Virus record (IMG/VR): IMGVR_UViG_2534682108_000010 | Coordinates: 1-18,141 of that record | Direction: 5' to 3' (one strand) | Source: a virus | Lineage: Duplodnaviria; Heunggongvirae; Uroviricota; Caudoviricetes | DNA length: 18,141 nucleotides | Shown: in pieces, positions 441-18,141 of the stretch | How the letters are laid out: the number at the start of each line of letters is the position of its first letter | How positions within the stretch are numbered: position 1 is the stretch's first letter | The notes under the pieces: generated by a model | Seen by the model: only the letters and a program-made list of their open reading frames with translations | Databases searched by the model: none | What the model was told of the DNA's origin: nothing | Made by a program: the position numbers and the translations under genes

Positions 441-540
441 TTATCACAGATGGTAAAAATCAGAACACGATAATAAAAATACCTGATGTATATTCATGCG
501 ACCCGCCCGCCACTCACTGAGGGCTTTTTTTTGCCCATAG

Positions 541-567
541 AAAAGCCCCTCCGGAGAGGGGCTTTTT
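541..567. terminator. Bidirectional intrinsic terminator hairpin
   Basis: gcccctc-cgga-gaggggc hairpin at 545-562 flanked by AAAA on one side and TTTTT on the other. Confidence 0.6.
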
Positions 568-1018
568 ACAGTGGTAGTGTAGACAATTTTGCATGGTGCC
601 GGATGCCTCCCGGTGAATTCTGCAATGACCAGACAGAATCCGCAACTTGCCTATACAATACGCAACCAAACATCTGTCATTATGCCCCGCCTCACAGGGG
701 GATTCACCATGCAAAATCATTTTTAACAAAACAGCATGTTATTCTCCAGTACCCGGCATAATGAAATGTGATGTTCTTAGCATTTTTAAAACCCCGAACT
801 TAGTGGTGATTATTTTTATTAGACACCCCTGTTTCACAGTAACTTTATTTTCTGTTTGGGCCACTCTGGCTCAATACTAAAATTATTAATTATCGACAAA
901 AATATAGTAAATAAATAAACAAGTTCCGAGAAAACCAATAACTATCATTGCTAATGCCAGCATAAATAGTTGTTGTGTGTTTATTTTTACGGTAGTGTAT
1001 TCAAAGTGTTGATTCCTG

Positions 1019-1630: not shown

Positions 1631-1751
1631 TCGCAACACTCAGCAAAAGGAGTAATATTACAACATGATCAACACTTTGAATACTTGCCCATTTTTACCG
1701 ATGAAAGGTAACGCAGAAAAATACTCAACATACAGTCCCCATAATCCTCTA

Positions 1752-1827
1752 TGGAGCGGCCAGCTGGAATCGAACCCGCATCATCAGCCTGGAAGGCCGA
1801 GGTAATAGCCATTATACGATGACCTCA
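1752..1827 (-). tRNA. tRNA-Gly(UCC)-like sequence, probable pseudogene
   Basis: D-arm, anticodon arm (loop CTTCCAG, anticodon UCC) and T-loop closely resemble E. coli glyT, but the 5' acceptor strand (tgaggtc) cannot pair with the 3' strand (tggccgc) and the T-stem has a G-A mismatch. Confidence 0.5.
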
Positions 1828-1917: not shown

Positions 1918-1994
1918 TGGACCGCCATCGGGGACTTGAACCCCGCGCAGCCAGCTTCGAAGGCTGGCGCTCTGTCCCGATGAGCTAATGGCGG
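1918..1994 (-). tRNA. tRNA-Arg (anticodon UCG)
   Basis: Perfect acceptor stem CCGCCAT/ATGGCGG, D-stem GCTC/GAGC, anticodon stem CCAGC/GCTGG with loop CTTCGAA, T-arm CGGGG-TTCAAGT-CCCCG, CCA encoded. Confidence 0.85.
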
Positions 1995-2079: not shown

Positions 2080-2241
2080 GGGCGCAGGATAATAACGGTA
2101 CGTAACTAATTCTGCAATATCATCCGTTCTGACTGACTAAATTCTGAACTTCCCTGACCGTCTGCTCAAAACGTTCAGTCTCCAGCTCAACACCAGTTGC
2201 ACGACGTCCCAGCGCCATTGCTGCTTTGACGCTACGGACAT

Positions 2242-5993: not shown

Positions 5994-6149
5994 AGTATCA
6001 CCTCATCAGGTTAACCATCACCACCAACGACGCCAATCGACTGGTGGTGAACTGTGTAAGGTTGGCGTAACCGGCTACTCAAACCCGGCGCTTCCGAAGA
6101 AGCCCTCACACAGCCCACCATAATTTGGGCATAGCCGTGCTTAGCGCAC

Positions 6150-6170
6150 AAAAAAACCGCTTAACGCGGT
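6150..6170 (-). terminator. Possible rho-independent terminator (minus strand)
   Basis: Minus strand: accgc-gttaa-gcggt hairpin followed by TTTTTTT. Confidence 0.45.
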
Positions 6171-6412
6171 ATGCGTTGAGTAGTATCCCGGGACGCCAAT
6201 CCCGTGTGCCGATTTTGCGGCAACGCACAGAATATAGCGCCGGATAAATCATGTCGTCAACCCCAGTAAATGGACACCATGATGATCACAGCCATAGCTG
6301 CTACAACAGTTACAACTACCTCAGGCCAAAACATAACGATTTCCATATCACCTTTAGCCGCCAGACGAATAGAGACTCCCAATTCTGGCTGTCGAAGTAA
6401 AACACCGAATGT

Positions 6413-16750: not shown

Positions 16751-17122
16751 ATGGATTCACACAGTATCACCCTCAAAGAGGCCTGTAAGTTTCTCAAGAT
16801 ATCAAGGCCAACAGCTGTTAACTGGATACGAACGGGCCGACTACAGGCAACCCGAAAAAATTCTTCCGGTAAAAGATCACCTTATCTCACAACCCGGCAA
16901 GCCTGCATTGCAGCACTTCATTCACCGCTGCATACTGTCCAGGTGAGCGCGGGTGATGGCATAACAGAGGAAAGAAAATGTCACTCTTCCGCAGAGGTGA
17001 AATATGGTACGCCTCGTACTCGCTCCCGGGCGGGAAGCGAATTAAGGAGTCTCTTGGCACAAAGGACAAGCGGCAAGCTCAGGAGTTGCACGACAAGCGA
17101 AAAGCAGAACTCTGGCGAGTAG
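16751..17122 (+). CDS. xis: Excisionase (HTH_17 / AlpA-type), C-terminal extent uncertain
   Basis: From ATG 16751: [36 protein letters not shown]..., a typical excisionase HTH; directly upstream of int and overlapping it; the ORF-track start at 16658 is upstream of this ATG. Confidence 0.55.
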
Positions 17123-18141
17123 ACAGACTGGGGGATATGCCAGATGTCACTTTCGAAGAAGCCTGCCTGAGATGGCTTGAGGAAAAAGCCGACAAGAAAT
17201 CCATCGATTTCGATAAATCCAGAATCGCATTCTGGATTGAGCATTTCGAGGGAATAAGGATTAAGGATATATCGGAGGCAATGATCTACTCAGTTATCAG
17301 CAAAGCGTATAACCGAAAAACAAAGGAGAGATGGAAGTTGCAGGTGGAGGCTGCATTAAGAAAAGGGAAAGAACCACCAGCCTATATACCTAAATCGGTG
17401 AGCACGCAAACAAAAGCAACACACCTGGCAATGATCAAGGCTATTCTGCGCGCCGCAGAGCGAGACTGGAAATGGCTTGAAAAAGCACCTGTAATCAAAA
17501 TACCTGCCGTAAAAAACAAACGCGTGAGATGGCTGGAAAAAGAAGAAGCCAGGAGACTCATTGATGCATGTTCTGATCCCCTGAAATCTGTAGTTAAATT
17601 TGCACTGGCAACTGGCCTGAGGAGATCAAACATTATTAATCTGGAGTGGCAACAAATCGATATGCAGCGACGTGTTGCCTGGGTAAACCCTGAAGACAGT
17701 AAGTCAAACCGCGCTATTGGGGTCGCACTGAATGACACTGCCTGCAAGGTGTTGCGTGATCAAATAGGCAAACATCACCGCTGGGTGTTTGTTTATACCA
17801 CTGCTGCCAGAAGGCCTGACGGGACAATGACACCAAGCATCAGAAAGATGCGCCTGGACTATAACACATCGTGGTTAACAGCATGTCGTCGGGCAGGAAT
17901 TGAAAATTTCCGTTTTCATGACCTCCGCCATACCTGGGCCAGTTGGTTAATTCAGTCAGGTGTACCACTGTCAGTACTTCAGGAAATGGGCGGCTGGGAG
18001 TCTATCGAAATGGTGCGTAGGTACGCACACCTTGCACCTAATCATTTGACAGAGCACGCGAGGAAAATTGACGACATATTGGGTGACGATGTCCCAAATT
18101 TGTCCCACCCTGAGGTTTTTGAGGATGCAAAGAAAGCATAA
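16978..18141 (+). CDS. int: Tyrosine recombinase / phage integrase (Rac IntR-like)
   Basis: 387-aa translation [46 protein letters not shown]... with C-terminal HDLRHTWAS...RYAHL catalytic motifs, closely resembling Rac-prophage IntR as recalled; GAGG RBS; stop at the window end. Confidence 0.95.

Follow-up and report, generated by a model that had tools for sequence, protein, structure and literature searches.

The Shiga-toxin phages 933W and VT2-Sakai carry three tRNA genes at the same place on the phage map, downstream of the antiterminator gene Q, and in 933W the order Q-pR'-pT-ileZ-argN-argO is followed by a terminator and the stx2AB genes. A second kind of array, Ile-Lys-Thr-Gly, is represented by Escherichia phages PhiR47_1 and vB_EcoM-606R7 and by a prophage of E. 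coli 1428_w1, where four packed tRNA genes lie downstream of Q, with tRNA-Lys(UUU) and tRNA-Thr(UGU) at positions 2 and 3, and with an annotated tRNA-Gly(UCC) gene of host glyT sequence in the last position. A third arrangement, found in lambdoid prophages such as those of E. coli 2012C-4221 (NZ_CP027437.1, here locus L126) and ST866 (L130) and in the IMG/VR contigs L024 and L080, is a two-gene cassette in which tRNA-Arg(UCU) and tRNA-Gly(UCC) are separated by a single nucleotide, in the interval that runs from Q to STnc100 and nanS-p. The chromosomal counterpart of the glycine gene, glyT of E. coli K-12, is part of the thrU-tyrU-glyT-thrT-tufB operon.

The locus described here lies in a stretch of 18,141 nucleotides, hereafter the window, that is 100% identical to the corresponding region of E. 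coli O157:H16 strain Res13-Lact-PEA12-26 (NZ_CP062876.1), where it belongs to a lambdoid prophage integrated in ynfG. From the integrase gene (16978-18141), the prophage runs through exo/bet/gam, the repressor region, the replication genes and ybcN-ninE-ybcO-rusA-ylcG to antiterminator Q, which is followed by a truncated methyltransferase gene, the tRNA genes, an IS1-family element, STnc100, the nanS-p esterase gene, and the holin, lysozyme and Rz genes. Despite a Q-tRNA-nanS-p-lysis region that resembles that of Shiga-toxin phages, no stx genes are found in the prophage (window ~1-2960; L134 19557-29282), and no head or tail morphogenesis genes are found after the lysis genes and before the IS3 element and Qin-like prophage DNA that follow (L134 19557-29282). 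Because of the IS1-family insertion, the truncated methyltransferase gene and the lack of morphogenesis genes, the prophage looks defective, judging from its gene content.

ARAGORN locates four tRNA genes head to tail on the minus strand downstream of Q, in the order Ile2-Arg(UCG)-Arg(UCU)-Gly. They are an ileZ-type tRNA-Ile2 gene with anticodon CAU (2004-2079; ARAGORN assignment Met/Ile2(CAU), 70.4 bits with the Rfam tRNA model RF00005), an argN-type tRNA-Arg(UCG) gene (1918-1994, 58.2 bits), a hybrid argO-type tRNA-Arg(UCU) gene (1828-1904, 57.3 bits) and a tRNA-Gly(UCC)-derived gene (1752-1826, 38.2 bits). As in the late-region arrays of lambdoid and Shiga-toxin phages, the genes share one strand, are closely spaced, and lie between Q/pR' and the lysis module, and the membership of the Gly sequence in the array is borne out by orthologous intact Gly genes that hold the same slot in related prophages. 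The resemblance to 933W is extensive, as window positions 2957-1827 are collinear with Q-pR'-pT-ileZ-argN-argO at 94% identity over 1,131 bp, but homology ends exactly at position 1827, and where 933W has a terminator and stx2AB, the window has tRNA-Gly. The counterpart of the putative tRNA promoter pT of 933W (2089-2117, minus strand), assigned by homology only from the 933W annotation and an alignment, differs from pT by one base; a promoter and terminator consensus scan of the window did not call it, and returned no more sites than were found in shuffled sequence. A weak 'terminator' at 1756-1737 was discarded, as it overlaps the CCA end and is without a T-run.

The Arg(UCU) gene is of mixed type. 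It resembles 933W in its 5' part and the Arg-Gly cassette in the acceptor strand and discriminator of its 3' end, where the last 10 nucleotides read AUGGCGCA compared to ACAACGCG in argO of 933W. Because the gene is 933W-like at one end and cassette-like at the other, the four-gene array is, on these alignments, a recombinant whose junction lies inside Arg(UCU), an illustration of how prophage tRNA arrays are reshuffled by recombination within tRNA genes. Within the complete E. coli collection searched, this four-gene array was found only in the window genome. The window differs from the cassette loci in the Ile and Arg(UCG) genes that precede the pair and in the IS1-family element that follows it, but shares with them the gene order, the 1-nt spacer, the U5·G68 pair of tRNA-Gly, the 3' flank and the position between Q and STnc100/nanS-p. 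Unlike the Ile-Lys-Thr-Gly arrays, to which it is ~81% identical over the whole array, and with which it shares four packed genes downstream of Q and a final Gly(UCC), it has Arg(UCG) and Arg(UCU) at positions 2 and 3.

Two descriptions in an earlier note on this DNA, that the Gly sequence begins with no spacer after tRNA-Arg(UCU) and that it abuts a functional array, need correction. One nucleotide, base 1827 (minus strand), separates the Arg(UCU) CCA from G1 of the Gly gene in the alignments, and because every copy of the cassette, intact ones included, has kept this 1-nt spacer, the abutment of the two genes is original and not a product of decay. Nor is the neighbouring array pristine. With its changed 3' end, Arg(UCU) has an acceptor stem that includes three G·U pairs, it has private A14G (1891) and G18U (1887) changes at universally conserved tertiary positions, and its score of 57.3 bits compares with 61.5-70.9 bits for the matching gene in six other loci; tRNA-Arg(UCU) may be impaired too, although PGAP annotates it. 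The Ile gene has a private C4U change (2076) that creates a U4·G69 pair. With 933W, strain G6/7 and the cassette alleles as references, the private changes of the window array are Ile C4U, Arg(UCU) A14G and G18U, and Gly C2A, all of which affect structure or invariant bases, and selection looks relaxed across the whole tRNA array on the pattern of these substitutions.

The Arg(UCG) gene of the window (1918-1994) is identical at 62 of 77 positions to a tRNA-Lys(UUU) gene in L002 (2596-2672). tRNA-Lys(UUU) holds the slot of Arg(UCG) in the Ile-Lys-Thr-Gly arrays. Both strands of the anticodon stem have changed, and as far as can be read from the alignment, it would seem that the anticodon of a single ancestral phage gene was remoulded to give two tRNA identities.

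The Gly sequence itself is a full-length gene of 75 nucleotides with an encoded CCA end (GAGGUCAUCGUAUAAUGGCUAUUACCUCGGCCUUCCAGGCUGAUGAUGCGGGUUCGAUUCCAGCUGGCCGCUCCA in the RNA sense), on the minus strand, a point left unstated in the earlier note, which had otherwise correctly recognized a tRNA-Gly(UCC)-like sequence with a body nearly identical to that of E. coli glyT. ARAGORN reports tRNA-Gly with anticodon tcc at 1752-1826(-), the anticodon lying at 1793-1791, and the RF00005 match (38.2 bits, E=5e-5 with the whole window searched) spans model positions 1-71, full length, above the 29-bit gathering score that defines membership in the tRNA family. No Rfam family besides tRNA matches the Gly region; 'Plastid-ycf2' matches on the opposite strand are reverse complements of the tRNAs with scores far under threshold, and were set aside. 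The gene has 69 of 75 bases (92%) in common with K-12 glyT (taken from NC_000913.3), with the D-arm, the UCC anticodon, the variable loop, the T-loop, U73 and the CCA end unchanged, and the bases that organize the loops and tertiary structure, U8, A14, G18G19, U54-U55-C56, A58 and CCA, are those of K-12 glyT. The six substitutions, in standard numbering, are C2A, G5U, A29G, A38G, C63A and C68G.

With these substitutions the cloverleaf is broken at A2·G71 and G51·A63, and has wobble pairs at U5·G68 and G29·U41, so that the four stems do not consist of standard pairs throughout. The T-stem mismatch reported previously is therefore real (G51·A63, window base 1765). The accompanying claim, that the 5' acceptor strand does not pair with the 3' strand, is too strong as stated, because six of the seven acceptor pairs form (five Watson-Crick pairs and the U5·G68 wobble), but it holds in that A2·G71 is broken and that the free-energy minimum is not the cloverleaf. 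A covariance-model score typical of a functional tRNA with a valid acceptor stem had been named as the result that would overturn the pseudogene assignment, and the outcome is divided. The sequence exceeds the threshold and most of its acceptor stem is valid, but it falls ~25 bits short of intact alleles (62.7-64.9 bits), and a synthetase identity pair is broken.

Three of the substitutions can be placed on known functional interfaces. C2A (1825, minus strand), assigned from the allele alignments and the pair table, gives the A2·G71 mismatch. The structure of E. coli glycyl-tRNA synthetase with tRNA reveals base-specific contacts to G1, C2, C69, C70 and G71; altering either of the first two acceptor pairs strongly lowers charging, and C2-G71 is an identity element of the enzyme (PMC9908026, PMC9976931). 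The window Gly gene retains U73, G1-C72, G3-C70, C35 and C36 of the identity set (U73, G1-C72, C2-G71, G3-C70, C35 and C36; PMC9976931, PMC9908026), which is incomplete because C2-G71 has become A2·G71. C63A (1765, minus strand), placed by alignments and the pair table, gives the G51·A63 mismatch. The affinity of tRNA bodies for EF-Tu is set by the T-stem pairs 49-65, 50-64 and 51-63, and because glycine adds little to EF-Tu binding, the body of tRNA-Gly depends on tight pairs, G51-C63 among them (PMC7826273). A38G (1789, minus strand) lies in the anticodon loop, where it permits a possible Watson-Crick C32-G38 pair, and the 32-38 interaction is known to pre-organise the loop and to tune ribosomal A-site binding (PMC10853795); the same change creates a CCAGG (Dcm) site. 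A29G (1798, minus strand) converts the A29-U41 pair of the anticodon stem to a G29·U41 wobble. The lesions thus fall on three functional interfaces, those with glycyl-tRNA synthetase and EF-Tu and that of the anticodon loop.

Folding calculations point in the same direction. The window cloverleaf has a computed energy of -12.2 kcal/mol, 10.1 kcal/mol above the minimum-energy fold of -22.3 kcal/mol, and is far from near-optimal, whereas the gap for glyT and the intact cassette allele is 0.9 kcal/mol. About 12-15 kcal/mol of cloverleaf stability has been lost in the window allele, although the computed energies overstate the instability, because modifications and proteins assist tRNA folding. 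The rival minimum-energy fold pairs GAGGU (1-5) with ACCUC (24-28). This fold, and a 7-bp helix (1-7:29-35) that the allele of locus L127 can form, were rejected as selected alternative structures, as the window Gly sequence folds no better than shuffled sequences (z-score -0.02) and the minimum-energy fold of any mutated sequence will make use of its new bases. Given the lesions and the computed fold, the RNA would most likely be poorly folded, poorly charged, or both.

The history of these lesions can be followed in related prophages. The suggestion that the sequence is a decayed fourth phage tRNA is strengthened by alignment with related arrays, in which a structurally intact tRNA-Gly(UCC) is found at the same position, 1 nt after the same Arg(UCU) and with the same 3' flank, in IMG/VR contigs L024 and L080, in the metagenome contigs L135 and L136, and in E. 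coli L130 and L132. L024 and L080 share the window's Arg(UCU) 3' end, spacer, U5·G68 pair and 3' flank, and have an otherwise perfect tRNA-Gly. Among 5,426 complete E. coli genomes, 22 have the Arg(UCU)-1 nt-Gly(UCC) unit with its flank, and 595 have an array that is composed differently but has tRNA-Gly as its last gene, for instance Ile-Lys-Thr-Gly. Exact-match scans of IMG/VR for the anticodon-arm variant of the window found no match. A degenerate pattern for the glyT-like body recovered at least 120 phage contigs, and most of the copies listed are glyT-identical genes or acceptor variants compensated on both strands, namely GCGGGUA/UACCCGC (more than 30 contigs) and GCGGUCA/UGACCGC (~20) among the matches listed. 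Such compensation on both strands indicates that the structure is normally under selection in phage copies. No match to the junction pattern was found among the GTDB species representatives, and a looser pattern with G38 found one real match there, a prophage copy in E. albertii, along with three chance matches in unrelated MAGs. The metagenome scan returned three copies of the cassette, and no A2 copy was present in either the metagenome or the species-representative scans.

Counted relative to the intact cassette allele with its U5·G68 pair, the alleles form a graded series. The glyT-identical allele (K-12 and L002), with G5-C68 instead of U5·G68, scores 64.9 bits with a cloverleaf energy of -27.5 kcal/mol and is annotated by PGAP, and the intact cassette allele (L130, L132, L024, L080, L135 and L136), with C2, A29, A38 and C63, scores 62.7 bits and -24.8 kcal/mol and is annotated by PGAP wherever annotation exists (L130 and L132). 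The L128/L131 allele has A38G, C63A, U6·G67 and U5-A68 (51.6 bits, -17.0 kcal/mol, annotated), and the L126 type, present in three genomes and a metagenome contig, has A38G, C63A and A29G (46.6 bits, -17.9 kcal/mol, annotated). The window allele is the L126 type plus C2A, its only difference from that nearest relative, and at 38.2 bits and -12.2 kcal/mol it is not annotated. PGAP annotates tRNA-Gly in L126, L128, L130 and L132 but not in the window or in L127, both of which have A2; in NZ_CP062876.1 it lists tRNA-Ile, tRNA-Arg and tRNA-Arg and leaves the Gly position empty. The window sequence is thus rejected by a pipeline that accepts related alleles, as is characteristic of a tRNA pseudogene in the operational sense of tRNAscan-SE and PGAP. 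Outside of the series leading to the window, the L127-type allele has C2A, A29U, C31A and A38G and scores 39.3 bits, and was assigned to five genomes on the basis of identical coverage and identity, L127 being the one copy inspected; in the L129 and L133 alleles stem pairs as well as the CCA end are lost.

The distribution of the individual changes shows the order in which they arose. C63A is common to all alleles with the same 3' flank haplotype as the window (haplotype A, 1699-1751, minus strand in the alignment), which is identical in L126, L128 and L131, and A29G is common to the window and the L126 type. C2A is private to the window genome within the series leading to it, and because the window flank is identical to those of L126 and L128, it is a recent and final step. 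Decay in the window lineage began with A38G and C63A, continued with A29G, and ended with C2A, and the window copy is, on this ordering of alleles, the most damaged end of the graded series that leads to it. Substitutions in the tRNA and its flank number, for example, 4 and 1 for L127/L135 (P~0.05), and 6 and 0 for L126/L128 (P~0.14), counts that are too small to tell neutral from accelerated change or to prove neutral drift.

A38G has a peculiar distribution, because it is present in every damaged glyT-like phage allele and in no structurally intact one. Seven distinct G38 alleles (window, L126, L127, L128, L129, L133 and L141 5632-5706) each have at least one broken stem pair, and G38 alleles occur on at least three acceptor-stem backgrounds, including that of the E. 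albertii prophage copy. Almost every A38 allele is intact, the exceptions being a handful of single IMG/VR variants. It may be that A38G is the usual first knockout, that it has been spread by recombination, or that it is a harmful allele for which inactivation is selected. The last possibility can be extended to a speculative and rather improbable proposal, that a recurrent type of phage tRNA-Gly(UCC) allele begins with A38G, that its C32-G38 anticodon loop yields a tRNA that miscodes or does harm in some other way, and that second-site inactivation is positively selected as a result. The presence of C2A on two different flank haplotypes, in the window and in the separately decayed L127-type allele, fits with such driven decay, and if the proposal were true, decay of the Gly gene would be driven and not neutral.

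Taken together, these observations make it very likely that the Gly sequence is a degenerating phage-borne tRNA-Gly(UCC), the fourth member of its array, and now a pseudogene or at best a severe hypomorph. Its source is the Arg(UCU)-1 nt-Gly(UCC) cassette that circulates in the late-regulatory region of E. coli lambdoid prophages, between antiterminator Q and the nanS-p and lysis genes. Recombination inside Arg(UCU) joined this cassette to an ileZ-argN-argO array of Shiga-toxin-phage type, creating a four-gene array where 933W carries stx2AB. Intact copies of the Gly gene would be co-transcribed with the array from pR'/pT, released by RNase P cleavage and 3' trimming, and would add decoding of GGA and GGG to that of AUA, AGA/AGG and CGA/CGG by the other tRNAs. 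The window copy would be drifting in a defective prophage, and its loss should cost the lysogen nothing, because the host has its own glyT.

In the genes of the prophage, frequencies per 1000 codons are 10.7 for AUA, 10.4 for AGA, 6.2 for AGG and 12.3 for GGA, and E. coli averages are several-fold lower for AUA, AGA and AGG, and modestly lower for GGA. Against this host baseline the prophage is rich in AUA, AGA and AGG, and only modestly so in GGA, which fits with an array that supplies tRNAs for rare codons, and of which Gly(UCC) is the least needed member.

Against decay, the window sequence passes both ARAGORN and Rfam, and a single substitution separates it from an allele that is present in at least three complete genomes and that PGAP annotates as tRNA-Gly. 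It is therefore conceivable, but unlikely, that the window gene still works in a weakened form, and that its transcript is processed, charged, and able to decode GGA and GGG. Most identity elements, all tertiary invariants and the encoded CCA are kept, and several genomes retain alleles with A38G and G51·A63, one of which, L128, has acceptor changes that preserve structure. However, the pair that has been lost is one contacted base-specifically by the synthetase, the T-stem mismatch removes a high-affinity EF-Tu pair that tRNA-Gly especially needs, the cloverleaf lies 10 kcal/mol above the minimum, and PGAP rejects this sequence. Furthermore, each G38 allele has at least one broken stem pair.

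A more remote alternative, which we regard as very unlikely, is that a tRNA-like fold has been kept for a role other than decoding, either as a processing signal for RNase P or RNase E by which Arg(UCU) is released at its 3' end, or as the source of a small regulatory RNA. Given the way that tightly packed tRNA transcripts are separated in E. coli, cleavage at the 5' end of a Gly sequence only 1 nt away would be expected to generate the Arg 3' end, and full length is retained in all decayed alleles. Yet the lesions lie in the acceptor and T stems, the minihelix recognised by RNase P, the fold is no more stable than that of shuffled sequences, and the Arg(UCU) gene that would be served is itself damaged. 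In other decayed alleles the CCA end and further pairs are gone, and tRNA is the only Rfam family with a match here.

Least probable of all, to the point of being almost negligible, is that the sequence is an integration or recombination remnant of host glyT, an att duplicate or a captured chromosomal fragment, for although it is 92% identical to the host gene, in a demonstrably recombinant array with an IS element nearby, it is full length where att duplicates cover the 3' part of a tRNA only, it lies within the prophage, ~15 kb away from the integrase gene, 22 genomes as well as viral and metagenome contigs contain the Arg-1 nt-Gly unit with U5·G68 and its flank, the junction lies inside Arg(UCU) and not at Gly, and the IS insertion is a simple one, with an 8-bp duplication, 61 nt away. 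For the Gly gene itself, the suggestion of a recombination relic involving a tRNA-Gly gene likewise finds no support, given its full length, its cassette-type U5·G68 pair in place of that of host glyT, and the position of the junction.

The decay of the window copy as a phage-borne tRNA-Gly is, then, the ordinary decay of a dispensable phage gene, and leaves the current understanding of tRNA and phage biology unchanged. Its value is mostly one of housekeeping, in that an unannotated tRNA pseudogene is added to a RefSeq genome, the slot of stx2AB in 933W is seen to hold a tRNA-Gly gene instead, and the mobile Arg-Gly cassette is documented by an allelic series from intact to decayed. The series can be read as a natural experiment, if a small one, as to which positions of a phage tRNA are the first to give way under relaxed selection; those affected lie at the synthetase, EF-Tu and anticodon-loop interfaces.

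The IS1-family element, identified from the PGAP annotation and from alignment with related loci, occupies positions 991-1690, at a distance of 61 nt from the Gly gene on its downstream side. Target duplications of 8 bp (ATTTTTAC, 983-990 and 1691-1698) lie on either side of the element, its terminal repeats read GGTAGTGTATTCAAAGTGTTGAT and GGGCAAGTATTCAAAGTGTTGAT, and related prophage loci carry an empty site at this position. At 700 bp the element is shorter than canonical IS1 (768 bp), and PGAP calls its transposase frameshifted.

A number of other RNA genes were noted in the window and in related loci. Between the tRNA array and nanS-p is a strong match to the STnc100 sRNA family (141.6 bits, 533-739(-)), which follows the Arg-Gly cassette in all related loci examined, and part of which also aligns just downstream of stxB in 933W; matches resembling AsxR/AgvB adjoin STnc100 in some related loci. 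The early region of the prophage has a match to the C4 antisense RNA family (74.8 bits, 6040-6125(-)), beside which lies a match to the Hfq-binding RNA family isrK (58.7 bits, 6150-6222(-)). Finally, a tRNA-like sequence of 28.3 bits, just under the Rfam threshold, is found directly upstream of the Arg-Gly cassette in L130 (1425-1497), where L128 has an annotated tRNA-Thr gene (49.3 bits), and by its score and position it is apparently another decaying array member in a related prophage.
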